Origin: Vulcanimicrobiota bacterium
GTDB taxonomy: Bacteria; Vulcanimicrobiota; Xenobia; Xenobiales; JADMJV01
Assembly: GCA_050250895.1 (NCBI GenBank)
Contig: JBFWNU010000002.1
Location: 535,659 to 599,658 of the forward strand
Direction of reading: 5' to 3'
Length of the DNA: 64,000 bases
The stretch's first letter is position 1. Each line of letters starts with the position of its first letter. The notes under the pieces were generated by a model that saw only the letters and a program-made list of their open reading frames with translations, searched no databases and was not told the origin of the DNA. Shown here piece by piece: positions 48,120 to 63,984 of this stretch. Position numbers and translations under genes: made by a program.

Positions 48120-51100
48120 CAGGCGATAAACTTCGTGCCGAAGTCAGGCACCCCGTAGGGCTTCATGAATTCGTCTAGTTCTTTGACCATGGCTTGCATT
48201 TCCCCTGCCGATGGGTTTCCGCTCCATAAGGTCTTGCGGATGTCGAGCATCTTGGCCCGGAAGGCATCCATGGCTTCCATCTCTTGACCCTTCGGAAAAC
48301 GGACCTCGGGATAGGCTCGCTGGAAACGATCCAATCCGACATCCTTGATTTCGCCGATGTGAGCCATGTTATTTTCGATGTTCTCTATCCGAGCCAGCAT
48401 CAGGTCGGTCGGTCGGGCCTCGTGCCGATAAGAGTAAAGCCGATCATAGAACACGTCCTTGGCGATGCGGGAGCGGCCTTCTTTGTCGAGGACCTGCCGG
48501 ACGGGAGCGTTCTTGGTGGTCTGGCCCACATCGTCGGCGCCCCACGGGTTACGGATGTAGACAAAGTCGTCGTCGACCCGCTCGATGTTGACGGCGTGCA
48601 GGCCGCCGTCGGGGTCGCCCTTGAACCAGTCCAGGGTGGCATGGATAGGCTCTCCCCGTTCTTCGGCCTGGCGAACGAGTTGCTCGAAATCGGAGCGGTG
48701 CTTAGCCCCGTTCGAGTAGCCGTGGTCGACGATTTTTCGGCCTCCCACATCTTCGAGGATCTGGCGAGCGTGCTTGTCGGACAGACCACCGTAGTCGAGG
48801 CTGCCGTCGTCCTTGAGGTGGCCACCCACGCCACCCTTGGAGCCGGTGACGTTGTTGTCGTAGCGGCGGCTGACGTGGTCCATGGCGGTCGACTGATAGA
48901 TGCGGTCGGCGCTGCGCCGGGTGCTGTTGTCGGCGGCCACGCCCGATTCGTTGCGGTAGAAGCGCCTGCCGGTCTTGAGGGTGACCTCACCCGATTCTTC
49001 ACCCAGCCCGGTCATCACCCGCACATAGTCGGCCGGGTCAGACTTGGCGTGCACGTACTGGCAGCTGCTGCCCGAGCACGTGCCGCGATTGCCCTGACGA
49101 ATCGTGCCCGGCGTGGTCACCGTTTCGAGCACTTCGTCAAAGTACTGGCCGCGGTTGAGTGAGGCGATCAGGGGGGCGTTGTCGAGTTCGACCAGATTGT
49201 CGAGCAGCGTCTGCCCCCGATGGTCGAGCTGGTTCAGCTTGCCCTCGCGAGCCAGACGGGCCAGGTTGCCTTCGACCCGGTTCGGCTTGGCGGTGCCGAA
49301 GATGCCGTCGAAGAATCCGGCCTCGGGCTTGTGCTTGTTGGCCAGTTCCAGCACCTTGAGCTGCTGGTCGGGCGCCATTTCGCGGAACTTGTCGATGTTG
49401 CGAAAGCGGCCCAACATGGGCTGGTCGGCAAAGCCGGCCACCTGGTCGGCCACCGTTCGCACCGGGGGTAGGGGAGGCGGGACGGGAACGTCCTTGAGCA
49501 CCGGCGGTGGAGCCCCGCCGCCGTCGAGCATTCCTTTGAGCTTGCCCAGAGCTGCCTGGTCGAGTTCGCGCGACTTCTGCCACAAGGCTCGGGCCTGGCC
49601 GGTCAGGCCGCTGCCGTCACCGGTCTTGAAGGCCCCCTTGAGCTTGTCGAGAGCCTGGCCGTCGAGTTCACGGGCTTTGCCGAGCCAACCGTTGACGGTG
49701 TCGCCCATCTGGCCCAGACGACCCCCCTCGCCGCCTCCACCCAGCATGCCTTTCAGCTTGTCGAGAGCGGCCGCGTCCATCTCGCGCGATTTCTGCCACA
49801 GGGCTTTGGCCTGGCCGGTCAGGTTGCTACCGTCGCCGGTGCGAAAAGCTCCCTTGAGCTTGTCCAAGGCCTGGCCGTCGAGGGCTTTGGCCTTGTCAAC
49901 CCAGCCGCGCACGGTGTCGCCCATCTGGCCCAGACGACCTCCCTCGCCGCCGCCACCCAGCATTCCCTTGAGCTTGTCGAGCGCAGCCCCGTCCATCTCG
50001 CGTGACTTCTGCCACAGGGCCCTGGCCTGGCCGGTCAGGCCACTGCCGTCGCCACTCTTGAAGGCGCCTTTGAGCTGGTCTAAAGCGCGCCGGTCCAGGG
50101 CCGTCGCCTTGTCGAACCAGCCTTTGACGGTGTCGCCCATTTGGCCCAGTCGACCCCCCTCGCCGCCTCCACCCATCAGGCCTTTGAGCTTGTCCAGAGC
50201 GGCTCCGTCAAGTTCGCGCGACTTCTGCCACAGGGCCTTGGCCTGACCGGTCAGACCACTGCCGTCGCCGGTGCGAAAGGCTCCTTTGAGTTTGTCGAGA
50301 GCGGCTCCGTCCAATTCGCGGGCCCTGGCATACCAGTTCTTGGCGGTCTCGCCCAATTGGCCCATGCGACCCTCGCCGCCCCCGCCCATCAAGCCCTTGA
50401 CTTTGTCGAAGGCCGCGTGATCGAGGTCGCGCGACTTTTGCCACAAGCCCTTGAGCTTGTCCAGAGCCGCGTGGTCGAGTTCGCGCGACTTCTGCCACAG
50501 AGCCTTGGCGTGTCCGGTCAAGCCGGTGCCATCGCCCGAATTTAGGGCTCGGCGCAAGGCCTGGCGGCTACCCGCGTCGAGTTCGCGAATCTGGCCCCAG
50601 ACCACCCTGGCTTTTTCGCCAGCCCGGCTGGCCAGATCGCCGCCCATCTCCATGGCCCTGCGTCCGCCGGCTGCCATCTTATCCCAACCCTGGCGGGTGT
50701 TGCGTACCAGGGCCGGCGCTCCGCCGATGGCGGCAGCCATCCCGCCGCCGGCCACGGCGCCAAGACTGGCCCCCATGCCGGTGGCCATACCGACCCGTTG
50801 CAGGCCGGCGCCAAATCCGTTGTCCCAGGTCCCATCGCGCAAAGCCTCGGCCCCGCCGGCCGACATGGCTCCGCCGATCATACCGTCGACCGCTCCCTCG
50901 GTGGCCAGCATGGCCACCCGGCTGCCGGCTAGAGCCGACTCGCTGGCCCGCAATCCGGCCACGGCCGCTTTGCCCGCGCCCATGCCGGCCACGGTAGCCA
51001 GGCCATCCACGGCGCCGATGGCGGCGTCGGTGCCCATGTCGCCTACGCCGTAAGAGCCGCCTTTGACGGCCGCCGAGGCGACCACTCGCGTGCCGGCACC

Positions 51101-53232: not shown

Positions 53233-53892
53233 TCAAGTCTGGCGCCGGCGCCTGAGCACGCCCCCCAGAATGCGGGCGAAGTCCTGCCGAGCGTCGCCTT
53301 CGGTGATACCCTGGTTGGTTCGGTGGATCCGGCGTCGCACCAGCACCTGGTCCACCATCGTCACCGTAGCTCCCGCCTCTTGAGCCCGGGCATACCAATC
53401 GATAAATTCGCCCACCTTCCAACCGGTGGCGAAGGGTCCCACCCGCTCGAATAGCCTGCGCCGCGCCAGCAGAGTAGAAGGCAGTTTGCCGGGCATCGGC
53501 TCGGTGCGCACTAAATAGGGATGGTTCGGATCGAGTTCTGGGCTCAAGAATTCCTCTACCAGGGTGAAGACCAGTTCGACCTCGGGCCCCAGACTGGACA
53601 GCTGCAGCTCGAGTTTGTCCGGCAGCCAGAGGTCGTCGGCGTCGAGAAAGGCTACCAGAGGATGGTGACTCAGTTCGAGGCCCCGATTCCTGGCCGCGGC
53701 CGCTCCCGATTGGGACTGGCAGTGATAGTGCACGGGGAATTGGGCCGCCACCTGGGCGGTGCCATCGGTCGAACCGTCGTCGATGACCCAGATGTCGTCA
53801 GGCCGATGGCTCTGCGCCAGCAGGCTGCTCAGGGCTTCGGCCAGATATCGCTCTCCGTTGTGCACGGGTAGGATGACGTCGATCTTACTCAA
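53233..53892 (-). CDS. GT2 glycosyltransferase
   Basis: VILPVHNGE, DDGSTD and FLDADD. Confidence 0.93.
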   Translation of the reverse strand: MSKIDVILPVHNGERYLAEALSSLLAQSHRPDDIWVIDDGSTDGTAQVAAQFPVHYHCQSQSGAAAARNRGLELSHHPLVAFLDADDLWLPDKLELQLSSLGPEVELVFTLVEEFLSPELDPNHPYLVRTEPMPGKLPSTLLARRRLFERVGPFATGWKVGEFIDWYARAQEAGATVTMVDQVLVRRRIHRTNQGITEGDARQDFARILGGVLRRRRQT

Positions 53893-54871
53893 GGAGTTCT
53901 CTCAGCTTCTCGGCGCCGCCCGCTCGCGTGGCAAGCTCCAGGCGGTAGCAAGGCAACCGGCGCGAGAGTCGAGCCAGAGCGGCAAAGGTCGCCTGGCTGT
54001 CTCCAGGCAGTTGGAAGACCGTGCTCGGGGCCAGAGCCAGCAGAGCTTGGGCGGGCGTTACCGGGGTGAGAACGTCCTTTTGGCCCAATTGCGGCATCAC
54101 GATGGCTCGCAGACCGAGTCCGTCCGCCAATCGGTGGCCCTGGGAGCGGGCCAGGAAGGTCACGGCTTTGGGCTCCTGGTCGGAATTCATCGGCTCAAAC
54201 CACGGAAAGTGAGGCAAATCGTGACGATGCAGCTTGGCGGAGCAATACAGACCGTGCACCAGTAGTTGCTCGATGTCGACCAGGCAATAATCCTCGCCCA
54301 CGAACTCGAGGCCCGCCTCGAGGCTGGCCAGGGCCAGATTGGATTTGCCCGAGCCGCCTCGACCGGGCAGCAAGACGGCCACCCCGGCCCGGCCCACCGC
54401 CGCCGCATGCAGCATGCACTTCGAGCGGCTGCCTAGCAGCCGACTAAAGATCACTCGAAAGGGCGCGGCCAGCTCGTAATAAGGAAGGCGTTCGGCGGCC
54501 GGAGCCCAGTAAAAACCGTGACCGGTTTCCAGGTCTATCATCCGCAGCAATTGTTCTTCCCCCTCGAACACGGTCAAGAACCGGGCATCCGACATGTCCT
54601 CGATCCGGGCGCGCGGCCCAAAGGACTGGGGCCTCCAAGGCGGCGAGGGCAGAGGCGCCTGGGCGCCGTGCCAGGCGAAGATAGTGAAGTCAGCCTGTGC
54701 GCCCCCGCTAGCATGGTGGGCCAGGGCCGGCAGGAGCTTTGCGGTGAGGGGCTCGGCCAGAGCCAGTTCGACGGTCAGGTTGGCGATGACCAGGCGATGA
54801 CGGGTCAGGGCCAGCTCGGCCAGCACCTCACGACAATCTTCGGCGAACCGTTCGGCCAGACTGACTACCAA
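53885..54871 (-). CDS. HPr-kinase-related P-loop kinase
   Basis: LHAAAV, GRGGSGKS and VGEDY. Confidence 0.85.
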   Translation of the reverse strand: MVVSLAERFAEDCREVLAELALTRHRLVIANLTVELALAEPLTAKLLPALAHHASGGAQADFTIFAWHGAQAPLPSPPWRPQSFGPRARIEDMSDARFLTVFEGEEQLLRMIDLETGHGFYWAPAAERLPYYELAAPFRVIFSRLLGSRSKCMLHAAAVGRAGVAVLLPGRGGSGKSNLALASLEAGLEFVGEDYCLVDIEQLLVHGLYCSAKLHRHDLPHFPWFEPMNSDQEPKAVTFLARSQGHRLADGLGLRAIVMPQLGQKDVLTPVTPAQALLALAPSTVFQLPGDSQATFAALARLSRRLPCYRLELATRAGGAEKLRELLE

Positions 54872-55767
54872 CGGCTGACCACCCGTCGCCAGAGATACCC
54901 GGGCAAGCCCACCAGGATATCAGCCCAACGACTCGGACAGCCGCGCAGGTACTCGCGCACGAACCCCAGCCTGAATCGCACGGCCCATTCCCCCAGTTGC
55001 TCGAAGAGATCCGGGTCGAGGGAGAGCGGCGGGTTACAGGACCAGGGGGCCAGCCTCTGCAGACCGGTCCGCACCTGGCTGGCCACCCGGCGCCGCCGCG
55101 CTTCGCAGGCCAGCAGCTCCCAGTCAATCGGGTGGCGGCGGTTCAGTTGCACCGCATCCACTCCCCACCAGGGCTCTTCCTGGCGCACCAGACTGAGCAG
55201 CAGGGCATCGCTGGGGCATGGCCGCCACAGCGGCCGGCCCAGCCAATGAAAGCTCTCGGCTCGCTCGAGCAAGCCCCGGTCGGCCTCGCTCCACCGGCAT
55301 TCAGTGAGTGCGTGCCAGCGCAGCACGAGCGGCGTTTGGCCCCGTTGATAAAGACAGCTCGAGCCTTCCTCGGGGCGGGCCACCGGCGGGCCGCCGCTCC
55401 AACCTCGTTGCTCGAGCAAGCGAGCGCAATGCCAGCGTTGCTCGGGTGTTATCAACACCGAGAGATAGAGACAGGGCCGCCAGGACTCGTCGGAATAGGC
55501 CTGGGTCATCAGGGCCGCGTCTCCGGTCGCCAGCCAGCGCACCGCGGCGAACAGCTCGGCGACCTCTTCGAGGTCTTGCTTGACCAGTTGGGTTCGGGTG
55601 AAATAGTAGCGGCGCAAGCCCGTTAGGCGCGGATGCTCGTGTTGTTCGCGAATGGCCAGCATGGGCAAAAGGGAATGCAGGCGTGGGTCGAGTTCGTCGA
55701 GCCAATCGAGAGGACCGGGTTGCGCCGGCCCGAGCAGTCTATGCCAGAGGGTTTCGAGCTCACTCAC
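54865..55767 (-). CDS. Nucleotidyltransferase-5-like protein (degenerate)
   Basis: Paralog of 58327-59349, but KG becomes TG and RPMSDID becomes RPCLYLS. Confidence 0.7.
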   Translation of the reverse strand: MSELETLWHRLLGPAQPGPLDWLDELDPRLHSLLPMLAIREQHEHPRLTGLRRYYFTRTQLVKQDLEEVAELFAAVRWLATGDAALMTQAYSDESWRPCLYLSVLITPEQRWHCARLLEQRGWSGGPPVARPEEGSSCLYQRGQTPLVLRWHALTECRWSEADRGLLERAESFHWLGRPLWRPCPSDALLLSLVRQEEPWWGVDAVQLNRRHPIDWELLACEARRRRVASQVRTGLQRLAPWSCNPPLSLDPDLFEQLGEWAVRFRLGFVREYLRGCPSRWADILVGLPGYLWRRVVSRW

Positions 55768-56494
55768 CGACGTGACGCTCTTCCAAGAACCGTCGCACCT
55801 CGGCGTCCTGGGCGACCAGGCTCAACCTGGGTAAGGATTCGGCTTTGCCCCGACGGCGGCGACGGTCGAGCGAGTGCTTCAAGGCGCGAGCCAGATGCTG
55901 CCCGCTGAGATAAGAGTCGGCCGTCATGTTGTCGGGATGACGTCGATAGTGCAGGGCGATCCGGCTAGAGATCTCGAAGCGCCGCCCTTGCTCGCGGATT
56001 CGCATGAACCAGTCGACATCTTCGGACATGGGCAGCTCCTCGTCGATGAGCCCCACTGCCTCGAAGAGGCTTCGCCGGCACACAGCCGCCCCGAATTGAA
56101 AACCGACCACCGGCTCGCTAAACTGCTTGAGCCCTTCCCATCGAATGCGGCCCAGCACCAACTCGAGGGTAGGGTCGGCCAGCAGCCGGCCCACCTGCCA
56201 GTCGAGCTTGCCAGGGGGCCACAGGTCGTCATCGTCGATAAAAGCGACCAACTCGCCCGACGAGGCTTTAATGCCACGATTGCGGGCGGCCGAGGGCCCC
56301 TGATTGGCCTGGCTCAAGTAGACCACCTGGGGACAAGCCTCGGCCACCTGCCGGGTGTCATCGGTCGAACCGTCGTCGACCACCACGATCTCCAGGGGAT
56401 GATAGTTTTGAGCCAGCACGGATTCCAGCGCCTGGGCAAGAGTCGCCTCGCCGTTAAAGACAGGCACAATCACGCTTAAGCTCGGTCCGGTCAC
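55760..56494 (-). CDS. GT2 glycosyltransferase
   Basis: VIVPVFNGE, DDGSTD and FIDDDD. Confidence 0.93.
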   Translation of the reverse strand: MTGPSLSVIVPVFNGEATLAQALESVLAQNYHPLEIVVVDDGSTDDTRQVAEACPQVVYLSQANQGPSAARNRGIKASSGELVAFIDDDDLWPPGKLDWQVGRLLADPTLELVLGRIRWEGLKQFSEPVVGFQFGAAVCRRSLFEAVGLIDEELPMSEDVDWFMRIREQGRRFEISSRIALHYRRHPDNMTADSYLSGQHLARALKHSLDRRRRRGKAESLPRLSLVAQDAEVRRFLEERHVGE

Positions 56495-56548
56495 GGCGCG
56501 TTTATTCGTTGGGAGGCATCCCGGAACCCTGGTAGAAGGTCCCCTTTT

Positions 56549-58330
56549 TTGGGCGCAGAACCTTTGACCGTGCGGCGTTACCTGGCCACTCTGCTAGAGC
56601 CCGGTTCGGCTCGAGGGTTGTTCGGGCTGTTGGTGCTGACCGTCTTCACCTCGGTGCTCGAACTGGTCAGTCTGGGGGCCGTTTTGCCCTTTATGGGTCT
56701 GGTAGTCCAGCCCGACCTGCTGTCCAAGTTTCCGACCCTCGAGGACTTCCTGGCTCGCCACCAGTTGAGTCACCACGAGCTGTTGGTGGCGGTCGGTTCG
56801 GGCATGGTGGTAGCCGTCATCTTGACCAACATCATGGCGGTGGTGATGGCCAACCGGGCCCAGCGGTTCACCGCCGACCTGCATCTGAGGCTGGTCACTC
56901 GTTTGTTGCAGGGGTTCCTGAGCCAACCCTACAGCTGGTTTCTCAACCGCAATACAGCCGAATTGGCTCGCCACGTCGAGGCTGTCGAAGCGGTGACCCG
57001 GGGGGTCTTCGAACCGGCCCTGCGGCTGGCCACCCGGGTCGGCAGCATGGTGCTGGTGATGTTGATGCTGCTACTTTACGATCCGTTGCTGTTGCTTTTG
57101 ATGGGGTTGGTGCTGGGCGGTCTCTACGCCGGCGCCTATGTTTATTGCCGTCACCGGGTGCAGGCCCTGGGTCAGCAGACCTGGGCCGCCCAACGCGAAG
57201 TCAAGCTGGCCACTCACCGGGCCCTCGAAAGCGCGCGAGAAGCGCGGCTTGGGGGCTTCGAAGAGTTCTTCGTAGGGCGCGTGTTGGACCCGGTGGAGCG
57301 AGTTCAAACCATGGGTGTGGTGCGCTCGACCCTGGAAGCCGTGGCTACCTATCTGACTCGCACGATGGTGATTCTTGGTTTCTTGCTGACCACGCTCTAT
57401 CTGGTCGTCCGCTATCCCGCGCCCGAGCACGTCATTCCTTTGTTGGGGCTCTACGCCCTGGCCGGTTACCGTCTGATGCCGACCCTGCAGTTGGCCTTTC
57501 AGAGCTTCACGCTAATTCGTTCGAACCTGACGGTGACGCGGGTGCTGGCTGAGGACCTGGAACAATCGCCGCCCCAGGTCGGGGGTCCGCAGTTGGCCGG
57601 ACTGGCTTTGACCGAGGGGGTCGCCCTCGAAGAGGTGGTCTTTGGCTACGGAGAGGAACCTTGGCTGGATGTCTCGTTGCGCATCCAGGCCGGCACCCGG
57701 GTCGGTCTGGTGGGGCCTACCGGCGCCGGAAAATCCACCCTGGTGGCTCTGCTGTGCGGTCTGCTCACGCCCACCCGGGGTCGACTCCTCCACGACGGAG
57801 AGCCTCTCGAAGGGCAGCGGCTGCGGCGCTATCAAAAGAGCATCGGGTTGGTTCCTCAACATATCTATCTGCTCGACGACACCCTGGCTCGCAATATCGC
57901 CTTTGGGGTGGCCGACCACGAGATCGACGAGCAGCGGTTGTGGGAAGTGCTGGCTCTCACTCAACTCGAGGAATTCGTGCGCACCCTACCCGATGGGTTG
58001 CACACCTCCCTGGGTGAGCGAGGGGTGCGCTTTTCGGGGGGGCAGCGCCAACGCGTGGGGATCGCCCGGGCCCTGTACCCAAAACCGCAGATTCTGATTT
58101 TCGACGAGGCTACGAGCAGTCTCGACCACCGCACCGAAGGGCAGGTCACTTCGGCCATGGCGCGGGCCACCCGCGACTGCACGGCGGTGGTGGTGGCCCA
58201 TCGTCTGGCCACGGTCAAGGATTGCGACCTCATTCATGTCATCGAGAACGGTCGCCTGACCGCCTCGGGAACCTATGCCGAGTTGGCCGATCGCTCGCAA
58301 GCTTTTCGAGAGATGGCCGGGTTGGCATGA
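56549..58330 (+). CDS. ABC exporter (TMD+NBD)
   Basis: TM helices, GPTGAGKS, FSGGQRQR and FDEATS. Confidence 0.95.
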   Translation: MGAEPLTVRRYLATLLEPGSARGLFGLLVLTVFTSVLELVSLGAVLPFMGLVVQPDLLSKFPTLEDFLARHQLSHHELLVAVGSGMVVAVILTNIMAVVMANRAQRFTADLHLRLVTRLLQGFLSQPYSWFLNRNTAELARHVEAVEAVTRGVFEPALRLATRVGSMVLVMLMLLLYDPLLLLLMGLVLGGLYAGAYVYCRHRVQALGQQTWAAQREVKLATHRALESAREARLGGFEEFFVGRVLDPVERVQTMGVVRSTLEAVATYLTRTMVILGFLLTTLYLVVRYPAPEHVIPLLGLYALAGYRLMPTLQLAFQSFTLIRSNLTVTRVLAEDLEQSPPQVGGPQLAGLALTEGVALEEVVFGYGEEPWLDVSLRIQAGTRVGLVGPTGAGKSTLVALLCGLLTPTRGRLLHDGEPLEGQRLRRYQKSIGLVPQHIYLLDDTLARNIAFGVADHEIDEQRLWEVLALTQLEEFVRTLPDGLHTSLGERGVRFSGGQRQRVGIARALYPKPQILIFDEATSSLDHRTEGQVTSAMARATRDCTAVVVAHRLATVKDCDLIHVIENGRLTASGTYAELADRSQAFREMAGLA

Positions 58331-59349
58331 GCGACCACCCCTTGCTTTTGCAGGCGGCCTTCGCCAGCGAGCCAGAACTGGCGCGGCAGAGCTGGGAGCA
58401 GTGGCTCGAACTGTTCGGCCATCAGGTGCTCGACAGCGATCAGACGCGATTGTTGCCGCTGCTCTATCGTCGCCTCGGCGCTCAGGTGCCGGGCGCTGGC
58501 GTGCTCAAACACTGCTACCGCCACGCCTGGTCGCGCTCGCGCCAATTGCGCCGCCAGACGGTGGAACTGGTGACCGAACTCAACCAGGTGGGGGTGGTGC
58601 CGATCTTGCTCAAAGGCGCTGCCCTGGCCAATTTCGTCTATCCCGACCCGGCTCTGCGGCCTATGAGCGACATCGATCTCTTGATCGCCCCGGCCGATTG
58701 GGAAGTTGCCTGGCAGCGCCTCGAGCAGCTGGGCTGGCGCTATTGGGGCTGGGCTAGCCATACTTACACTTTCAGTGATTCCGAGGGCCATGAACTGGAT
58801 GTGCACCGTTACTCGGTGCCAGAGTGTGTCTGGCCCGAAGCCGACCGCGAGTTTTGGCGACGCAGCCGCGAGGTCGATCTCGAGGGGGCGCGGGCTCGCA
58901 TTCTGGGCCCCGAGGACCAGCTGCTGCACCTGACCCTTCACGCCGTGCGTTCGCCGGGGCGCTGCCTGGTGGCTGACGCCCTCACCCTGCTCGGGAACCA
59001 TTGGCTCGACTGGGATGCCTTCTACGCTGAGGCACGGGCCCGCCGGGTGTTGGGCCAGGCGGTGGAAGGGGTCCAGCAGCTGGGGCACTGGCATGCCTGC
59101 CCCGCCGCGCCAAGGCTGAGCTGGCGCGAGCAACTCGAACACCGTCTGGCGGTGCGGGCCCGCAGCTGGGTTCCAGCCAACTACCTCTGGCAGTATCTGC
59201 TCTATTGCCGGGGCCACCGCCGGCGCGGCTCGCTACGGCTCTTCTTGCGCGAGCTCTGGGGGGTTCGCCCCGAGCAGACCCTGGTCGCGAGGTTGGTCGA
59301 GAAAATCATCGCGCGAGGAGGCCGGTCCTCGGGAGCGAAGCGAGGTTGA
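58327..59349 (+). CDS. Nucleotidyltransferase family 5 protein
   Basis: LLKGAAL, RPMSDIDLL and ELDVH. Confidence 0.88.
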   Translation: MSDHPLLLQAAFASEPELARQSWEQWLELFGHQVLDSDQTRLLPLLYRRLGAQVPGAGVLKHCYRHAWSRSRQLRRQTVELVTELNQVGVVPILLKGAALANFVYPDPALRPMSDIDLLIAPADWEVAWQRLEQLGWRYWGWASHTYTFSDSEGHELDVHRYSVPECVWPEADREFWRRSREVDLEGARARILGPEDQLLHLTLHAVRSPGRCLVADALTLLGNHWLDWDAFYAEARARRVLGQAVEGVQQLGHWHACPAAPRLSWREQLEHRLAVRARSWVPANYLWQYLLYCRGHRRRGSLRLFLRELWGVRPEQTLVARLVEKIIARGGRSSGAKRG

Positions 59350-59780
59350 TGACCGAGTTGAGTTATGAGTTGAGACGTCCGGATGTCGTGAGTGAAGAGA
59401 TCGAGGGCGAAGTCGTGGTGGTCCATCTGGTGAAAGGCCTGTATTACAGTCTTCAGGGCAGTGCCGCTGCCATCTGGGAGCAGCTGCTGCTCGGGGTGCC
59501 GGTGCGTGAAGTCAGCGAGCGTCTGGCGCCTCGCTATTCCGTCGAGCGGCCGCTCCTGGAACAGGCCGTGGTGGCGTTCGCCGAGCAGGTCCTCTCGGAA
59601 GGGCTGCTGGTCGCGCGCACCGCTCCCCCCAGCTTGCCTCCGGCCCGTCACCATGGGCGGGCCGAGGATTTCCAGGCCCCCGTGCTCGAGCGCTTTGACG
59701 ACATGCAAGAACTGCTGGTGCTCGACCCGATCCACGAGGTCGATGAGTCGGCCGGGTGGCCCCATCGCCGGGCTGTTTGA
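59349..59780 (+). CDS. PqqD/RRE domain fused to a C-terminal leader/core-like peptide
   Basis: EEIEGEVVVVHL..GLYYSLQGSAAAIWEQL RRE; tail FQAPVLERFDDMQELLVLDPIHEVDESAGWP. Confidence 0.88.
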   Translation: MTELSYELRRPDVVSEEIEGEVVVVHLVKGLYYSLQGSAAAIWEQLLLGVPVREVSERLAPRYSVERPLLEQAVVAFAEQVLSEGLLVARTAPPSLPPARHHGRAEDFQAPVLERFDDMQELLVLDPIHEVDESAGWPHRRAV

Positions 59781-60639
59781 TCTTTTAGCCCGCGCCGAGC
59801 AGTTTTGGTCGAGCCAGCGCGAGTTGGTCTGGCGACACTTTTCCGTCGCTGGCGAGCACCTGCGCGTCGGCAGTCCCGACAGCGAGCTGCTAGAGCGGCT
59901 GACCTGGGCGCTGGGTCCCGCCGAGCCTGGCCCGAGCGGCCTCGAGGTCAGACTCTGGTCCGGATCGCCCGAGCTGGTCCTGGAAGAGAGCTGGCGCCAG
60001 GCCCGCGGCGATTGTCCCGACTTTGGGCCGGGCCGGCTGACCCAGTGCGGGCCCGAGGCGCCGGTCTGTCTGTGGCAAGAGTCGCTCGCCTACTATTGGG
60101 TCCCGGGCCGGCTCTCGGACCACGAGCTGGGAGCTCCCTTGCGCACGGCCATCTATCTGTGGCTGGCCCGACAGCAGCGCCAACTGGTGCATGCGGCCGC
60201 CGTCAGTCGCGATGGACGAGCGGTGCTCATCGGGGGTCGGGGCGGCAGCGGCAAGAGTTTTCTCTGCCGGCACCTGGAAGGCTGGTCTTGCCTGGGCGAT
60301 GACTATGTGGGGCTGGGCCCGGGCGCGGTTTACCCGGTTTATCGTTCGCTCAAGCTCGATGGCCAGCTCGAGCGCCTCGAGCCTGCGGCCCCGGCCACCC
60401 TGGTGGGAGGTTTGCTGTTGGGGGCGGACGAGGGTCCGGCGCCGGTTTCGCGGCTGGCGCGGACGATCGGAGCCAGCACCCTGCTGCTGTTGCCGTGGTC
60501 GGACGCTGGCGACCTGGCCCGCATCGGCTCGGCTTTGAACGGGTTGCCCTGCTGGGGTTTGCCGGTCCGTCCCTCGGTCAAGGTGGTCCACCGCTGGTTG
60601 GCTCGGTTCTTTGACGCTTGCGGTCCAGCGAACGTTTGA
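59743..60639 (+). CDS. HPr-kinase-related P-loop kinase
   Basis: VHAAAV, GRGGSGKS and LGDDY. Start is uncertain. Confidence 0.8.
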   Translation: MSRPGGPIAGLFDLLARAEQFWSSQRELVWRHFSVAGEHLRVGSPDSELLERLTWALGPAEPGPSGLEVRLWSGSPELVLEESWRQARGDCPDFGPGRLTQCGPEAPVCLWQESLAYYWVPGRLSDHELGAPLRTAIYLWLARQQRQLVHAAAVSRDGRAVLIGGRGGSGKSFLCRHLEGWSCLGDDYVGLGPGAVYPVYRSLKLDGQLERLEPAAPATLVGGLLLGADEGPAPVSRLARTIGASTLLLLPWSDAGDLARIGSALNGLPCWGLPVRPSVKVVHRWLARFFDACGPANV

Positions 60640-61273
60640 GCACGGTGGCCAGCAGACGATTGTGCTCGACCATCGAGGTGTTGTCAGAGTGAACGCGTTT
60701 GTCGACCACCACGGCGTCGAGCATGACCCCTTCGACCCCCAGGTCACCGGCCCGAGCGAACCAGTCGACGTCGTGGGCGTTGGGATAGGCCGGGTCGAGC
60801 AGGCCCACTCGCTCGAAGGCGCTGCGATGAGCCAAGAGGGTCTCCATGATCTTGCCCGGATGCTCGCCCACCAGGAGCTTGGGGCGAAAGCCCGCGGGAG
60901 TCTGGCTGCCTTCCAGAAAGAAGCGAACCTTTCCAGTGGCAAACAGGCAATCCGGGCGGGCCCGCAGGGCCGCTAGCTGGTCGGCCAGCTTGTCGGGGCG
61001 ATAGAGGTCGTCGTGGGACAAAAACGCGATCCACTCGCCTCGAGCCTGGTGGATGCCGGTGTTGTAGGCGTCGGGGAGAGTGTCACCATGTTGGGGCATC
61101 CAGCGACAAAGCGAGGACTGCTCGGCAATCTGGCGCGAGCCGTCGGTCGATCCGCCGTCGACCACGAGGACCTCGAGAGGGCGATGGGTCTGGGCCTGGA
61201 TGCTGGCCAGGGCCTGGCCGAGGAAAGCCTCACCGTTCTTCACACAGACCACCACCGAAATCAGCTCGCTCAT
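60578..61273 (-). CDS. GT2 glycosyltransferase
   Basis: VCVKNGE, DGGSTD and FLSHDD. Confidence 0.9.
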   Translation of the reverse strand: MSELISVVVCVKNGEAFLGQALASIQAQTHRPLEVLVVDGGSTDGSRQIAEQSSLCRWMPQHGDTLPDAYNTGIHQARGEWIAFLSHDDLYRPDKLADQLAALRARPDCLFATGKVRFFLEGSQTPAGFRPKLLVGEHPGKIMETLLAHRSAFERVGLLDPAYPNAHDVDWFARAGDLGVEGVMLDAVVVDKRVHSDNTSMVEHNRLLATVLKRSLDRKRQRTEPTSGGPP

Positions 61274-62130
61274 CGCCGCAACCATCGCTTCCAGAAGCCG
61301 GCGCGGCAGCTGTGGCGCGGCTCCCAACCCAGCAATGCAGAGGCCTTGCGGTTGCTAAACCAGGCCTGATAGCCCTGCGGCGGGGGCTGAAAGGTGTCCA
61401 GCCAGCCCGGCAGGCCCCGTTCGAAGAGAGCGCGCGTTTCGACCGAAGCGGTGGTGTCGCTGGCCAGCAAGTAGACGGCGGAAAACGATGGAGGAGCGGC
61501 CAGGGAGAGGTAATCTTCGCAGGCTCGATGCAGGTCGCGCAAATCGAGATAGTGCCACGGGTCGATCAGGTATCCCTCGCGCAGTTGGCCAGGACCGCGG
61601 TGGGGGAGGTAGGAGTCGGTCCGCTCGGGCTCCCAGACGGCGGCCAGACGCAGACACAACACCGACATCGAGGTCTCTTGCGAGAATTGCTCGAGGAATT
61701 TTTCGCAACCGAGCTTACTGCGGCCATAGTCGTCCTCGGCGTGGCAGTCGTCGCTTTCGTCGAAGGGCAGCCGCCGAGGCTTGAACAGGCGGGGGTAGGG
61801 CTGGTACTCGCCCTGCCCCTGGACGTTGATAGTGCTGGCCAGAACGAACCGCTCGACACCCGCCTCGGCGGCCGCCCGGGCCAGGTTCTCGGTGCTGACC
61901 AGATTGTTGGCGTAGGTGTCGGGCCCCGGGTGGGGCGTGCCCGCAAAGTGAAACACCGCCTCGGTGCCGGCCACTGCCCGGGCGCAAAACCCTGGTTCGC
62001 TCAGGTCTCCCACCAGTCGCTGGGTCGGCCCGGGACGCCGATCGGCGCAGACCACCCGGTGATTACGCTCTAACAGCGGACGCAGCCTCAAGCCGATCCG
62101 TCCCGCATCCCCGGTGAACAGCAACTTCAT
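61270..62130 (-). CDS. NAD-dependent epimerase/dehydratase
   Basis: TGDAGRIG and YGRSK. Confidence 0.9.
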   Translation of the reverse strand: MKLLFTGDAGRIGLRLRPLLERNHRVVCADRRPGPTQRLVGDLSEPGFCARAVAGTEAVFHFAGTPHPGPDTYANNLVSTENLARAAAEAGVERFVLASTINVQGQGEYQPYPRLFKPRRLPFDESDDCHAEDDYGRSKLGCEKFLEQFSQETSMSVLCLRLAAVWEPERTDSYLPHRGPGQLREGYLIDPWHYLDLRDLHRACEDYLSLAAPPSFSAVYLLASDTTASVETRALFERGLPGWLDTFQPPPQGYQAWFSNRKASALLGWEPRHSCRAGFWKRWLRR

Positions 62131-62144
62131 CGCCGACGCTTCCT

Positions 62145-63548
62145 CTAAGAGGCGCTCTGAACCTGTTCCTGGGCCTGCTGGAGCCGGCGGGCCCCCCGTA
62201 AGAGTAGCGACAGGCCACGCTCGAGCGAGAGGTCTTGAGGCACTTCCACCTGGGCCAGGGTCTGCACCGCCAGTTCGAGATCATCGAGAGCGCCCAGATA
62301 GAGCCGGCCTTCGCTGGGCGCCTCGTCGGCGGGCACCAGCTGGCGGGCCTTGGAGATGGCCGCCTGAAACTGGCTCAAGCGCTCGGTCAACAGCGACAGC
62401 GGAGAAGTGCCCTGCTGAAAGCCCAGGCAGGCCTGGCGCAGCTTGAGGATGTTCTCATATTCCGTGCCCTCCTGTTCATCCTCGGACAGGTCCAGCAGGT
62501 GCCGGTCGGCGCCTTGAATGGCCGGCAGCTTGACGGTACAGTGGGAACACAGGCGCCGGTGGAGAGCGTTGAGGTAGCCGCAAGAGGGGCAGGGGGCCGT
62601 CCCTTCGCGGGCGGCGACTTCTTGCAGGTGGGCCATCTGAGCATCGAGTCGATTCTTCAAGTCGCGCACCGGGCCGGCCAGATCGACCTCTTCGGCCTCT
62701 TCGACCGCTTCGGCGATAGCCAGCATCGTCTCGTCGAATTCGGCCAGGGTGTCGCCGATGGCGGCGCTGATTTCGCGAGTCTGGTGCCAGGCTTCGGCGG
62801 CCGCCGCCGTCATCTCGAAGCGTGAGGCCAGCCGGCGTACCTCGAGCAGCGCTCCCTCGACGGCCAGCAGGATGACCTCGGGGTCGGTCTGGGCCTCGAG
62901 CGTCTCGAGCAGACGGCTCACTCCCCACAGCCCCCCCTCGCGGACCCACTCGGCCGCCACCTCCGCGGTGGCGGCCAAGCGCTGGAAGGCCTGTTCCAGT
63001 TCGAGCCCGCCCAGGTCGGTGGCACCTCTGGCCCAGTCCTGCAGCGCTCGCAGTGCCTCGACCAGGCGAGCGGCCGAAGGCGGCCCTCCCTGACCGGACA
63101 GCCTTGCCTCCAATTCTCGCAAGTGGTGGTCGAGCAGTTGGCTCAGTCCGAATTCGAGGCTGGCGCCGCCCAGATAGCGACGGCCCGATTCGAGAATGCG
63201 ATTGACCCAGGCGATGGGGGTGGGGCCGTGGGCCTCCCACATGGCATCGCGAAAGGCCAGCGCCCATTGATTGACTTCGGCGTGGACCTGGCGTAGCTCG
63301 AGCAGGGCCTGGCGTGGAGATTCGGACTCGACGGCCGCCTCGGCCAGATCCTGGCAGCGGTCGAGGCGCGAGGTGATCTCTTCGAGATAGGGCTGCATGG
63401 CTTCGACCATCTCCTCGGGGTGGGGCTCGAGGGCGGTCTCGAACTGGCCCAACCACTGGCCCAGCCCATCCACGAACGCCTCGAGCAGGGGGCGGGCTTC
63501 GGCTTCGCCCTTGAGAACGCGCTCTAATTGAGCCTCGAAAGGATTCAT
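62145..63548 (-). CDS. Helical hypothetical protein with a zinc ribbon
   Basis: CPSC...CSHC. Start MNPFEAQ. Confidence 0.75.
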   Translation of the reverse strand: MNPFEAQLERVLKGEAEARPLLEAFVDGLGQWLGQFETALEPHPEEMVEAMQPYLEEITSRLDRCQDLAEAAVESESPRQALLELRQVHAEVNQWALAFRDAMWEAHGPTPIAWVNRILESGRRYLGGASLEFGLSQLLDHHLRELEARLSGQGGPPSAARLVEALRALQDWARGATDLGGLELEQAFQRLAATAEVAAEWVREGGLWGVSRLLETLEAQTDPEVILLAVEGALLEVRRLASRFEMTAAAAEAWHQTREISAAIGDTLAEFDETMLAIAEAVEEAEEVDLAGPVRDLKNRLDAQMAHLQEVAAREGTAPCPSCGYLNALHRRLCSHCTVKLPAIQGADRHLLDLSEDEQEGTEYENILKLRQACLGFQQGTSPLSLLTERLSQFQAAISKARQLVPADEAPSEGRLYLGALDDLELAVQTLAQVEVPQDLSLERGLSLLLRGARRLQQAQEQVQSAS

Positions 63549-63624
63549 ACCCGCTGCGAGGGTTCGGGATAGGGCCTTGTTCGCCTTCCAGGAGGCCTCG
63601 GGACTCACAGCAAAGAGGAGCAGC

Positions 63625-63984
63625 ATGCAGCAACTGATCGAGGAACTCAAGGCTCTGCACGAGGGCGTGCTGGGCCAGCCCCTGGTGGAGGAGCGTGAGC
63701 CAGAAAGGGTGTTGGCCCGACTGCGGGCCGGCGAGTCTGACTTTCCGCTCGCCTTGCGCTGGGATGACCAGCCCCACTCGGTGGTGGTCGAGTCGTTACG
63801 TTCTGAGCGGGTGTTTTTCTTCAACCCGATGCAGGCCGAGGATGTCCAGCCGGGCACTTTGCTCGGCGGGACCCGGGACGGGCCCCGTCGTCGCTCTGAA
63901 GAAGACGGCCTCGAGAGCGTTGCAGTGGAAGACTTTCGAGCGCTTTTTAGTCAGCGTCAGGCGGTTTGCCTGGTGCCCGGCTAG
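63625..63984 (+). CDS. Hypothetical protein
   Basis: RBS GAGGAG before ATG 63625. Confidence 0.7.
   Translation: MQQLIEELKALHEGVLGQPLVEEREPERVLARLRAGESDFPLALRWDDQPHSVVVESLRSERVFFFNPMQAEDVQPGTLLGGTRDGPRRRSEEDGLESVAVEDFRALFSQRQAVCLVPG

Follow-up and report, generated by a model that had tools for sequence, protein, structure and literature searches.

The 64-kb stretch of DNA that we analysed, called the window here and used for all positions below, contains a forward-strand gene (59349..59780; ATG at 59349, TGA at 59778-59780) for a 143-aa PqqD-tail protein, the tailed RRE. Its ATG overlaps by 1 base the stop codon of the NTP_transf_5 gene upstream (TGATG). The protein begins with an RRE/PqqD winged-helix domain (residues 5-90; 59361..59618), located by Pfam, PDB profile, AF2 and Foldseek, and continues into an Ala/Pro/Ser-rich linker (residues 91-107; 59619..59669), RTAPPSLPPARHHGRAED, 4 of whose 18 residues are Pro and which the homologue alignment marks as variable, with lengths of 4-30 aa (median 18) across the family. 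There follow a leader-like strand, FQAPVLERF (residues 108-116; 59670..59696), recognised by AF2 and covariation and having the family consensus [FYW]xxPVLE[KR][YF]; a conserved segment, DDMQELLVL (residues 117-125; 59697..59723), picked out by the alignment and the complex model; and a distal arm, DPIHEVDESAGWP (residues 126-138; 59724..59762), delimited by the alignment and AF2, whose D126 lies 15 residues past the motif Pro. All of these features are on the forward strand. The earlier note had described an RRE of about 90 aa, a Pro-rich linker and then an FxAPxL tail, and the 143-aa frame and residues 108-138, FQAPVLERFDDMQELLVLDPIHEVDESAGWP, agree with the letters that it quoted.

Upstream on the same strand lie the NTP_transf_5 nucleotidyltransferase-like gene NTP5_a (58327..59349; Pfam PF14907, E 4.2e-39), which is the orthologue of a gene conserved in related operons (median 92 bits to 57 loci), and an MsbA/PglK-like ABC exporter of 593 aa without a peptidase domain (56549..58330). 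Downstream, the gene for a divergent HprK-like P-loop protein, HprKl_a (59743..60639, forward strand), has a likely ATG preceded by GAGG that overlaps the last 38 nt of the tailed RRE gene. The reverse strand carries the HprK-like kinase HprKl_b (53885..54871), a second, divergent NTP_transf_5 gene, NTP5_b (54865..55767; Pfam and orthologue comparison), and three glycosyltransferases assigned by Pfam/NCBIfam, GT2_a (55760..56494), GT2_b (53233..53892) and GT2_c (60578..61327), as well as a peripheral gene of the NAD-dependent sugar epimerase/dehydratase family (61270..62130), which has counterparts in 3 of 55 related loci. Pfam and NCBIfam scans of the 11 ORFs over 53233-63857 found no peptidase domain, and the paper listed by a literature search on PF14907/NTP_transf_5 was unrelated.

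In most related loci the tailed RRE is followed by a kinase gene whose orthologue here is HprKl_b; its median score against the related-locus kinases is 132 bits, versus 52 for HprKl_a. Both window kinases fell below the cut-off of 200 for TIGR04352 (HPr-rel-A; 34.7 and 49.0), the tailed RRE did not match TIGR04353 (HPr-rel-A) at E<=0.01, and we found no literature on the HprK-related kinases of these two models. Within the kinase family (53 sequences), the invariant residues are H155, G173, G175, K176, S177 and D194, with D193 nearly invariant; we take H155 and D193/D194 to be the equivalents of HprK/P H140 and D178/D179, and the P-loop region matches HprK/P (1JB1, E 2.7e-6). Retention of this HprK/P-type catalytic set suggests a hydroxyl acceptor. 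Profile-profile comparison of the two families, kinase and RRE, gave no sign of an RRE-like N-domain in the former (probability 0.85%).

Across the 55 related loci having at least 7 kb downstream, HprK-like genes were present in 50, GT2 genes in 52 (two or more in 48), NTP_transf_5 genes in 43 and ABC genes in 25, and the kinase was the next gene after the tailed RRE in 34. The operon that the tailed RRE heads is widespread; besides the HprK-like kinase and NTP_transf_5 it contains two or three GT2, and an ABC exporter is a frequent addition. Fusions of the kinase with GT2 are also present among the operon parts, and clustering the ORFs of 80 related loci by BLAST, which can miss hypervariable short ORFs, revealed no further conserved family. 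One locus, with a PqqD-tail gene and two GT2, was considered as a complete minimal system and rejected, its genome having a kinase orthologue elsewhere (E 1.4e-97).

Family conservation and the search for a separate precursor

Relatives of the tailed RRE are spread over many phyla and hundreds of bacterial species; Novosphingobium sediminis NBRC 106119 and Oscillatoria sp. PCC 10802 are among those that carry the operon. They form 4133 clusters (50% identity) at E<=1e-3 and 2103 at E<=1e-10, and at least 530 of the 599 pattern matches listed, on contigs from one genome per species, encode such a relative. Databases label the family members only as 'PqqD family protein', and we found no description of the family or of a cis leader fused to an RRE, although the supplementary data of PMC13381572 and PMC12710340 could mention such forms.

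Aligning homologues, which the earlier note had proposed as a check on its tail, gave a pattern far from chance. Among 146 homologues of the tailed RRE, information content per column came to 2.03 bits in the RRE, 0.85 in the linker and 2.98 in the tail, the tail being conserved more strongly than the RRE, and all 146 share D126, P127, H129, W137 and P138. The residue 12 past the motif Pro is Leu, Ile or Val in 143 of these sequences. The alignment contains no conserved Ser, Thr or Tyr position in the tail, and 14 of 223 homologues are without any Ser after the RRE. The Ser that the earlier note had counted among the His/Ser/Asp residues of an acidic tail did not hold up: the S134 column is filled in 48 of 146 sequences, with Ser in 10 of those. 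Position 15 after the motif Pro is Asp in all 146 homologues, but the genome also encodes a paralogous tailed RRE with Ser at this place (2 of 2 sequences); of this type we found 2 proteins, and it is present in 2 of 401 genomes. Plain tail-less RREs of the same genome adjoin Asn-synthase-like genes. In some RRE-kinase fusion homologues the tail is internal, in the arrangement RRE-tail-RRE-kinase, and in tandem RRE proteins an [FY]xxP-like strand is present in every RRE and DP[IV]H..GWP in one copy only.

That no standalone precursor is evident nearby, as the earlier note had remarked, was borne out by the lack of gaps longer than about 100 nt across 53233-62130 and by HMM searches. A tail HMM run against 195,671 six-frame segments of the genome matched only the tailed RRE (E 1.9e-20) and the tail of one paralogue (E 0.004), and it gave exactly one strong match per locus in 80 of 80 related loci; a leader HMM found no other leader-bearing ORF in the genome or the 80 loci. 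A word-based search of low sensitivity detected no short standalone proteins (30-77 aa) with the tail, and language-model and structure searches that took the isolated tail as query and left PqqD clusters out produced no usable match to a tail-like non-PqqD protein.

Predicted docking of the leader-like strand and the kinase

The Pfam model PqqD (PF05402) covers residues 21-87 of the tailed RRE at 45.6 bits (gathering cut-off 23.4), and a profile search against the PDB matched TbiB1 (E 2.5e-18) and also PbaB1 (9x90) and LppB (9x8z); the NCBIfam lasso B1 models stayed under their cut-offs (NF033536, 41.2 versus 80; NF033530, 26.4 versus 70). In the AF2 model, strands at 13-18, 21-26 and 31-36 are followed by helices at 37-47, 52-59 and 67-83, the three strands and then three helices of a winged helix, with pLDDT of 88-97 over the domain. 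Foldseek aligned the RRE of this model with TbiB1 (5v1v_A; TM 0.88 by target, E 4e-6), and the modelled fold is nearest to those of the lasso B1 proteins TbiB1 and TfuB1.

Beyond the domain, the AF2 monomer built from the 146-sequence alignment (mean pLDDT 87) had pLDDT values of 86, 94 and 88 in ten-residue blocks over 91-120 and of 53, 50 and 49 over 121-143. Structure prediction, another check proposed in the earlier note, docked the FQAPVL segment on the RRE cleft: the leader strand at 108-116 was modelled with pLDDT 88-94 and forms a strand at 114-116, and bridges are seen at 63-64 and 106-107. By our own numbering map, the modelled strand and bridges coincide with the leader sites of the PbaB1 and LppB crystal structures, in which PbaA E-9..L-7 pairs with PbaB1 Y38-N40 and leader K-18 with D68/E70.

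Covariation was scored as shuffle z-scores for 2924 tail-by-RRE pairs in 223 sequences; mutual information with APC was dropped because gappy, high-entropy linker columns dominated its scores. The best of the 2924 pairs joins tail 108 (F/Y) to RRE 73 (A/S/G versus D) with a z of 12.0, and tail 114 covaries with RRE 36. D73 accompanies Tyr108 in 13 of 27 sequences and Phe108 in 1 of 183; Fisher's test, without phylogenetic correction, gives a p of 1.5e-12. When Y108 sequences were each paired with their nearest F108 neighbour the split was 13 to 1 (p 0.0018), and mutual identity among the Y-with-D sequences (median 0.376) does not exceed background (0.385); a phylogeny-aware independent-pairs test of 108/73 (treekit) retained 4-6 pairs on supported branches, with p of 0.5 to 1. 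RRE residue 73 corresponds to D70 of LppB, a residue hydrogen-bonded to the leader Tyr (PMC13381572). The 108/73 covariation suggests that the cleft co-evolves with the fused strand, and on its own it fits cis binding or binding between two copies. Judged from model and alignment together, the F/YxxPxL strand very probably docks in cis in its own RRE cleft, though AF2 and ESMFold2 may be repeating memorised RRE-leader and HprK/P-HPr geometry. Conservation of the tail, its contact with the modelled cleft and the failure to find a separate precursor are each the reverse of what the earlier note had named as speaking against its idea. Of its interpretation, cis binding is well supported by the AF2 docking and the 108/73 covariation; the proposal that the acidic tail would be the substrate meets the contrary evidence given below.

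We modelled the tailed RRE in complex with HprKl_b. Median ipSAE over three runs was 0.76, as against 0.00 for the best of 3 controls; solved complexes attained that ipSAE mark in 116 of 157 cases and mismatched pairs in 2 of 215, counts that apply only roughly to models built, like these, on our own alignments. Between runs, at least 76% of contacts are shared, and partner pLDDT is at least 78. The predicted interface comprises RRE residues 11-36, tail residues 116 and 118-123, and kinase residues 86-87, 171 and 272-304; the near-invariant E21, G30, Y32 and S34 of the RRE fall within it, as do kinase L277, A281, P282, S283 and Q287. If these models are right, the RRE sheet face and tail 116-123 probably dock on the conserved C-terminal motif of the kinase. 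The arm is absent (126-138) from the confident contacts of this complex and floppy, with low confidence, in the monomer (121-143). AF2 prediction of a natural fusion, P0076 (block alignment, 118 rows), modelled RRE1 and the kinase well and left the arm (123-159) and second RRE below pLDDT 50, which speaks neither for nor against contact of arm and kinase.

Possible roles of the distal arm

We favour a reading in which the protein is a self-leadered, lasso-B1-type RRE, with its own C-terminal [F/Y]xxPxL strand occupying the cleft in cis, and would itself serve as precursor or carrier, as if the LppB-LppA pair from the pathway for linear polyphosphorylated peptides (LPP) had been fused into one protein. 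The exposed beta-sheet face of the RRE and tail 116-123 would form one surface docking on the kinase C-terminal motif (ALAPS..QLPG); the flexible, invariant arm, DP[IV]HxV..GWP, would thereby stay accessible to the kinase, NTP_transf_5 and two or three GT2, which would modify it before export of the product by the ABC transporter. Taken whole, with the protein as its own substrate, this explanation is plausible but somewhat short of probable, and we infer both the arm as acceptor and the nature of the chemistry.

That no other candidate leader-bearing ORF was found argues for the protein as its own substrate, and several observations argue against it. The arm is invariant, unlike typical RiPP cores; in fusions it is internal and covalently tied to the kinase, which would be odd for a consumable substrate; the conserved operon has no peptidase; and the tail has no conserved Ser, Thr or Tyr, while LppK, as described, accepts only Ser, leaving S3T and S3Y variants unphosphorylated (PMC13381572). 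For PsmK and PadeK the acceptor described is a C-terminal Ser, the HprK/P-type catalytic set of the kinase family speaks for a hydroxyl group as acceptor, and the arm lies outside the confident contacts of the complex model. In favour, on the other hand, is the register: the polyphosphorylated Ser3 of LppA lies 15 residues past the motif Pro (PMC13381572), at the place taken here by D126 and in the paralogous tailed RRE by Ser. A more specific proposal makes the tailed RRE a proteinaceous glycan carrier, in which the kinase would phosphorylate the carboxylate of Asp126 to an acyl phosphate, NTP_transf_5 would add a hexose and three GT2 would extend it; we regard this as highly improbable. Asp126 stands in the register of the polyphosphorylated Ser of LppA, and the product would be a high-energy, protein-borne analogue of an undecaprenyl-pyrophosphate-linked oligosaccharide, to be exported or passed to another acceptor. 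Kinases of the LPP type are able to extend a phosphate by further phosphates.

The fused leader may instead permanently complete and stabilise the RRE as a constitutive 'leader-on' adaptor, a possibility that we take seriously while leaning against it. RRE and tail would then only dock or activate the kinase, NTP_transf_5 and GT2, which would act on another acceptor, one without a leader-peptide gene (for example a lipid carrier, a glycan or a protein with its gene elsewhere), and the invariant arm would be an enzyme-binding or active-site-completing motif, not an acceptor. Such a motif is suited by the invariance of the arm and its lack of conserved Ser, Thr or Tyr, and it is RREs rather than substrates that usually become fused to a kinase. 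Tandem proteins point the same way, all their RREs keeping the strand with the DP[IV]H..GWP motif confined to one, as does the complex model, which puts the RRE face and 116-123 on the kinase and not the arm. LppB is insoluble in the absence of its leader (PMC13381572), and a fused leader would therefore be stabilising. Together, the epimerase, the PglK/MsbA-like exporter and the conserved set of GT2 have the look of glycan assembly, and LPP clusters are located in capsule loci (PMC13381572). Against an adaptor stands the absence of a candidate for the alternative acceptor, which would have to be universal given a cassette that is self-contained across many phyla; furthermore, in LPP the enzymes modify what follows the RRE-bound motif (PMC13381572).

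A role for the cis strand as an autoinhibitory cap, displaced by a true precursor too remote or too variable to detect and leaving the RRE to act in trans, is unlikely. Conservation of the cleft residues matches that seen in trans-acting RREs, hypervariable short ORFs slip past BLAST clustering, and the kinase orthologue found elsewhere on the chromosome in the genome of the rejected two-GT2 locus means that a precursor could also be remote; but leader and tail HMMs match no other ORF in the genome or the 80 loci, the 108/73 covariation ties the cleft to the fused strand itself, the tethered strand would have a very high local concentration, and a cap leaves the invariance of the distal arm unexplained. 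We also think it quite unlikely that the tail is purely structural, or that its strand is swapped between two copies in a dimer, the arm having no direct role in the enzymology. Covariation does not separate cis from domain-swapped trans binding and the distal arm is unplaced in all models, yet five invariant residues in a segment modelled as flexible point to a specific partner or chemistry over fold stability.

Known systems and significance

The closest known system is the LPP family, whose clusters in Bacillota comprise LppA, B, K, N, D and S (Popov et al., Nat Commun 2026, PMC13381572). Both systems combine a stand-alone RRE with an HprK-like kinase, along with an NTP-transferase and also an MsbA-like exporter, in glycosyltransferase-rich surroundings, and in LPP a [Y/W]xxPx[V/L] strand occupies the RRE cleft with the downstream part free for the enzymes, as predicted here (PMC13381572). 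In LPP the motif stands on a separate LppA (35-200 aa, variable C-terminus), whereas here it is fused to the RRE C-terminus; the SpI-like (SipW-type) leader peptidase described there has no counterpart here; and the acceptor there is Ser3, where the tailed RRE has an invariant Asp at that register (PMC13381572). No separate ORF with the LppA N-terminal motif, YxxPxVLxHQxIxFETxxS (PMC13381572), was found here. LPP is reported as restricted to Bacillota (PMC13381572), in contrast to the many phyla of the tailed RRE, whose operon also differs in holding two or three GT2 within its conserved core.

The paeninodin and pseudomycoidin lasso clusters resemble the tailed RRE in their B1-type RRE and YxxPxL leader logic (Zyubko et al., Chem Sci 2019, PMC6993621). 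The pseudomycoidin tailoring pair is likewise an HprK-like kinase, which phosphorylates the peptide, and an NTP-transferase-like enzyme, with PsmN needed for hexose on the phosphorylated form (PMC6993621). Unlike lasso clusters, the tailed RRE has no separate precursor and no C-terminal Ser, and it carries Leu, Ile or Val at the penultimate-Thr position of lasso leaders. Genes for an Asn-synthase-like lasso cyclase and a Transglut_core3 B2 protease were absent from the 11 cluster ORFs, and 0 of 12 PF00733 and 0 of 4 PF13471 matches in the genome lie on the window's contig. Paeninodin itself was reportedly the subject of work by Zhu et al. in 2016. The tailed RRE is like TbiB1 (5V1U, 5V1V), TfuB1 (6JX3) and PbaB1 (9X90) in fold (TM 0.84-0.88 by target), in cleft residues and in the modelled binding of aromatic-xx-Pro-x-Leu, but lasso B1 proteins have about 85-100 aa and take their leader in trans, whereas the tailed RRE has 143 aa and its own strand.

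Substrate segments attached to folded domains occur in the enzyme-core fusions of the borosin OphMA type and in the protein-like leaders of NHLP/Nif11 precursors. To our knowledge, none of these uses an RRE as the fused domain, and their cores are variable or cleaved off. PqqD-PqqA and MftB-MftA each comprise an RRE and a separate peptide and serve radical-SAM chemistry without the kinase, NTP-transferase and GT2 set; since each product is a single defined molecule, the modified residues of PqqA and MftA do not vary. The tailed RRE is comparable to these systems in that its RRE would work with an invariant peptide segment.

RREs are usually treated as trans-acting readers of leaders, and genome mining presumes a separate precursor gene; in the tailed RRE family the leader is built into the RRE and a separate precursor was not found. 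If the arm is the acceptor, the family would be a natural RRE-precursor fusion and a new route to a phospho- or glyco-modified small protein. If the protein is an adaptor, it would be a natural counterpart of the engineered fusions of leader and enzyme in which tailoring enzymes have lost their dependence on a leader. The family offers a compact, soluble system for RRE-leader engagement of HprK-like kinases and of the enigmatic PF14907 'NTP-transferases', and either reading would extend the recently described LPP chemistry far beyond Bacillota.

Probable docking of the leader-like strand in its own RRE

The tailed RRE gene (59349–59780, + strand) is a 143-aa ORF whose ATG shares one base with the stop of the upstream gene, and its last 38 nt are covered by the downstream gene, the likely start of which is an ATG at 59743 preceded by GAGG. 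By these overlaps it is translationally coupled to both neighbours. Pfam PqqD (PF05402) scored 45.6 bits over residues 21–87 (cut-off 23.4), and NCBIfam held no model for the family, every match falling under its cut-off. The domain is followed by the linker RTAPPSLPPARHHGRAED and then by residues 108–138, FQAPVLERFDDMQELLVLDPIHEVDESAGWP, which in the ORF translation agree letter for letter with the tail quoted in the earlier note. RRE profiles matched TbiB1 (E 2.5e-18), PbaB1 (9X90, 2.3e-13), TfuB1 (3.9e-9), and LppB (9X8Z, 1.9e-6), the RRE of the linear polyphosphorylated peptide (LPP) family; as judged by these profiles, the window RRE is closest to lasso B1 proteins.

Profile alignments, combined with residue numbers from Popov et al. 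2026 (PMC13381572), gave the numbering map tailed-RRE residue = PbaB1 − 6 = LppB + 3. The published cleft residues thereby map to Y32, Y33, L35, I42, L59, Y63, F77, L81, and L86, which are among the best-conserved RRE positions. The earlier note had proposed that the RRE binds the leader-like strand in cis and expected a structure prediction to dock it there, and AF2 (146-sequence alignment; mean pLDDT 87, pTM 0.78) did place FQAPVLERF, which spans the blocks of pLDDT 94 and 88, in its own RRE, with a strand at 114–116. Successive ten-residue pLDDT blocks of 88, 96, 95, 97, 97, 95, 97, 97, 97, 86, 94, 88, 53, 50, and 49 indicate that the linker and FQAPVLERF are confidently placed and that residues 121–143 are not. 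In the PbaB1–leader crystal the leader pairs through E-9 to L-7 with Y38–N40 and through the K-18 backbone with D68/E70 (PMC13381572); with F108 set as W-15, these pairings correspond to tailed-RRE residues 114–116 with 32–34 and about 105–107 with 62/64. DSSP assigned the model strand to 114–116 and bridges to 63–64 and 106–107, at the mapped crystal positions, so the canonical binding mode is reproduced. Foldseek confirmed the fold (5v1v_A, TM 0.88 by target).

Covariation within the family lends further support to the cis-docking idea. Mutual information was compared with shuffles for 2924 tail-by-RRE column pairs across 223 non-identical sequences (146 plus 80 locus proteins), and the top pair was 108 with 73 (z 12.0), followed by 117 with 23 and 114 with 36. 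Residue 73 had been named among four candidate contact positions ahead of the test and is the equivalent of LppB D70, which is reported to hydrogen-bond the leader Tyr, as in actinobacterial lasso complexes (PMC13381572). Of 183 sequences with Phe108, 139 have Ala, Ser, or Gly at residue 73 and 1 has Asp; of 27 with Tyr108, 13 have Asp there. The association gave a Fisher p of 1.5e-12, which ignores relatedness, and a comparison of each Tyr108 sequence with its nearest Phe108 neighbour gave 13 to 1 (p 0.0018); a stricter tree-based test, with only 4–6 usable pairs, gave no significance. Sequences carrying Tyr108 and Asp73 were not more alike than background (median identity 0.376 vs 0.385). 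RRE residues 23–37, the beta2–beta3 hairpin, occurred in 17 of the top 30 pairs against about 5 expected. This covariation is compatible with binding within one chain and between two copies alike.

Conservation and genomic context of the tailed RREs

That no standalone precursor is evident nearby, as first noted from the sequence, holds: the intergenic gaps from 53233 to 62130 reach ~100 nt at most, and each of the 80 related loci contained exactly one strong tail by tail HMM (residues 105–141). Run on the whole 9.5-Mb genome as 195,671 segments in six frames, the same HMM revealed no separate precursor: its only matches were the tailed RRE itself (E 1.9e-20) and a paralogous RRE on contig C4, whose tail scored E 0.004. 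With an HMM restricted to the leader-like part, the best match outside tailed RREs reached E 2.3. A search of low sensitivity found no short standalone proteins with the tail, and querying by language model and by structure, again with just the tail, returned no look-alike outside PqqD.

Aligning homologues bore out the expectation that the tail is conserved: D126, P127, H129, W137, and P138 are invariant in an alignment of 146 sequences, and P111, D118, V131, and G136 nearly so. Mean information per column in this alignment was 2.98 bits in the tail, compared with 2.03 in the RRE and 0.85 in the linker, which, together with the invariant residues, indicates that the tail is more tightly constrained than its own domain. 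The family consensus is [FYW]xxPVLE[KR][YF]x-DMQ[ED]LLLL-DP[IV]HEVD-x(2-3)-GWP, followed by 2–17 variable residues. A word-based search found 42 full-length homologues of 130–162 aa; searching 1.84 billion cluster representatives exhaustively with HMMER yielded 4133 matches at E ≤ 1e-3, of which 2103 reached E ≤ 1e-10, and at least 530 of the 599 pattern matches listed from a one-genome-per-species collection encode a relative. Judged by record title, the 80 kept loci come among others from Acidobacteriota, Chloroflexota, Cyanobacteria, Verrucomicrobiota, Planctomycetota, Nitrospirota, Gemmatimonadota, Actinomycetota, Bacteroidota, Proteobacteria, and Clostridia.

Closer to the host the distribution was patchy. 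The family profile (E ≤ 1e-15) matched 8/15 genomes of the host's own family, some of these matches spanning the RRE part alone, and 0/25 genomes searched from sister families within the order and class. The tailed RREs of two cyanobacteria, Crinalium epipsammum PCC 9333 (L093, NC_019735.1, 5896–6360) and Scytonema hofmanni UTEX 2349 (L068:9983–10435), are near-identical by eye, and one of the two copies lies on a mobilizable (MOBP) plasmid beside a group II intron, which suggests that the cassette has spread horizontally in recent times. RefSeq annotates one copy, on C. epipsammum plasmid pCRI9333.04, under the generic names PqqD family protein, nucleotidyltransferase family protein, HPr kinase, FkbM methyltransferase, and glycosyltransferase family A.

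The window cluster (53233–62130) contains three GT2 genes, two HprK-like P-loop kinases, two PF14907 (NTP_transf_5) genes, an MsbA/PglK-like ABC exporter, and an epimerase. Across the 80 loci the commonest order is tailed RRE, HprK-like kinase, two to three GT2, NTP_transf_5, and ABC. Among the 55 loci having at least 7 kb downstream, we detected the kinase in 50, GT2 in 52 (two or more in 48), and NTP_transf_5 in 43, the same 43 that hold all three enzyme types; the ABC exporter was present in 25 and the epimerase in 3. The next same-strand gene after the tailed RRE was a kinase in 34 of these loci, GT2 in 12, and NTP_transf_5 in 5. The window orthologues of the conserved enzymes are the kinase HprKl_b (53885–54871, −) and NTP5_a (58327–59349, +), with HprKl_a and NTP5_b being divergent additional copies. 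ORF clustering of the 80 loci produced no other widely conserved family, the biggest cluster beyond core families and shadow ORFs reaching 19 loci.

Two further ORFs flank the window cluster. A 1672-aa ORF (48119–53137, −), on the same strand as the glycosyltransferase gene GT2_b and 96 nt downstream of it, carries five Annexin repeats (PF00191, E 2e-52), which seem unusual in a bacterium, along with a Gly/Ala-rich stretch, about six repeats resembling 'ALWQKSRELD..ALDKLKG', and a C-terminal region containing Cys and His motifs; this ORF is not kept beside the system at other loci. A 570-aa ORF (62145–63857, −) directly precedes the epimerase gene, which shares its strand, and drew no match from Pfam or NCBIfam (E ≤ 0.01).

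The genome encodes three tailed RREs, all with HprK-like genes and glycosyltransferases: the window copy, one at C4:127872–128231 (L089; tail YTRPELMIYRDMGDLLALDPPAPRLEQITWTPS), and one at C5:244065–244358 (L090; tail YAPPVLRKYSQLDSLAAYSPDKL). The C4 cluster further holds NTP_transf_5, an ABC gene, a sulfotransferase, and GT4s, and the C5 cluster GT4s and an epimerase; NTP_transf_5, present at the window and C4 clusters, was not found in the scanned C5 region. Both tails retain [Y]xxPxL..Y and differ in their distal parts, that of C4 being DMGDLLALDPPAP...W and that of C5 ...AAYSPDKL, with Ser in place of D126 of the window copy. By contrast, five matches, one of them C1:275164, are plain, tail-less RREs, and the four covered by the comparison lie within ~2 kb of Asn-synthase-like genes (C9:232290, C1:2165897, C1:3416121, and C1:3477137), C9:232290 being adjoined by a B2 protease as well.

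Predicted kinase docking and the possible role of the arm

Complex models, built from alignments of 53 rows for HprKl_b and 146 for the tailed RRE, support binding between the two. The ipSAE was 0.76 (median of 0.74, 0.77, and 0.76) against 0.00 for the best of three controls, a mark met by 116/157 solved complexes and 2/215 mismatched pairs, counts that are only rough here because custom alignments were used. At least 76% of contacts were common to the runs, with partner pLDDT of at least 78. Confident contacts in the model involve the exposed sheet face of the RRE (11, 14, 16, 18–23, 25, 27–28, 30, 32, 34, and 36), including the near-invariant E21, G30, Y32, and S34, and tail residues 116, 118–120, and 122–123. 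On the predicted kinase side they involve 86–87, 171, directly before the P-loop (173–177), and 272–304, a stretch holding the family-conserved L277, A281-P282-S283, and Q287. The invariant arm (126–138) is absent from the confident contacts. A PDB sequence search found no RRE–kinase complex of this kind and only HprK/P itself, including 1KKL and 1KKM, which we take to be HprK/P–HPr complexes; part of the complex-model pass could come from likeness to such entries.

Natural fusions link the enzymes functionally. RRE-tail-RRE(-RRE)-kinase proteins of 617–849 aa (P0076, P0087, P0103, P0104, and P0163) and tandem RRE proteins (P0043, P0044, and P0152) carry an [FY]xxP-like strand after each RRE and the full DP[IV]H..GWP arm on one copy only, the N-terminal RRE in kinase fusions and the last in most tandem proteins. 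Kinase–GT2 fusions of 593–612 aa occur in seven loci (L015, L017, L022, L027, L028, L033, and L073), and one of these, L033, also encodes a 944-aa NTP_transf_5–ABC fusion (L033:8929–11760). In the AF2 model of the fusion P0076, the arm and second RRE had pLDDT below 50.

The earlier note took the acidic tail to be the substrate, and we tentatively suggest that the tailed RRE may be its own substrate or carrier. It is the sole leader-bearing polypeptide in a self-contained cassette that crosses phyla, and its arm is flexible in the model, like a core peptide, and comes after the RRE-bound strand, as does the LppA core. The phospho-Ser of the LPP precursor LppA lies 15 residues after the motif Pro, where the tailed RRE has the invariant D126; P111 to D126 is free of indels in 146/146 sequences, and both the C4-type tail and the DPPLP-type tail of P0152 likewise carry Asp there, the C5-type tail Ser (2/2 sequences). 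This register match may be coincidence, since 5 of ~28 post-Pro positions are invariant.

Several observations argue against the own-substrate reading, to which a constitutive leader-on adaptor serving another acceptor is a possible alternative. No hydroxyl position is conserved in the tail: position 117 is Thr, Asp, or Ser and looks like a helix cap, and 14/223 sequences have no Ser after the RRE, though none lacks both Ser and Thr. LppK, the LPP kinase, took neither Thr nor Tyr for Ser3 (PMC13381572). The kinase family, moreover, retains an HprK/P-like catalytic set, the arm is invariant and internal in fusion proteins, and there is no conserved peptidase. On balance of these points, the own-substrate or carrier reading is plausible at somewhat below an even chance and the adaptor possible but a little more doubtful; that the tail is instead an autoinhibitory cap, or serves structure alone, is rather improbable even when the two are taken jointly.

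Relation to described systems

Among described systems the LPP family comes closest; it is located in Bacillota capsule loci and has a core of the precursor LppA, discrete RRE LppB, HprK-like LppK, NTP-transferase LppN, MsbA-like exporter LppD, and SpI-like peptidase LppS (PMC13381572). The LppA N-terminal motif is YxxPxVLxHQxIxFETxxS, Ser3 receives 1–4 phosphates from LppK, S3T and S3Y variants stay unphosphorylated, and leaderless LppB is insoluble (PMC13381572). In pseudomycoidin, a kinase phosphorylates the C-terminal Ser, and addition of hexose onto the phosphorylated forms needs the PF14907-like PsmN (PMC6993621). Our searches on RRE-fused and cis-leader forms, HPr-rel-A, and PF14907 found no description of the tailed family; the only remark in the accessible text of an RRE survey (mSystems 2025, PMC12710340) is that 21% of PF05402 proteins are above discrete-RRE size and have no other annotation.

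The tailed RRE system shares its enzyme logic with LPP and pseudomycoidin but differs in that two or three GT2 form part of the conserved core, that it has no peptidase, and that its leader motif is fused to the RRE. Unlike lasso systems it is without a cyclase or B2 protease, and none of the genome's 12 Asn-synthase and 4 Transglut_core3 matches is on the window's contig. The tailed RRE family is best filed as tailoring machinery of the LPP and paeninodin type, with the leader built into the RRE.
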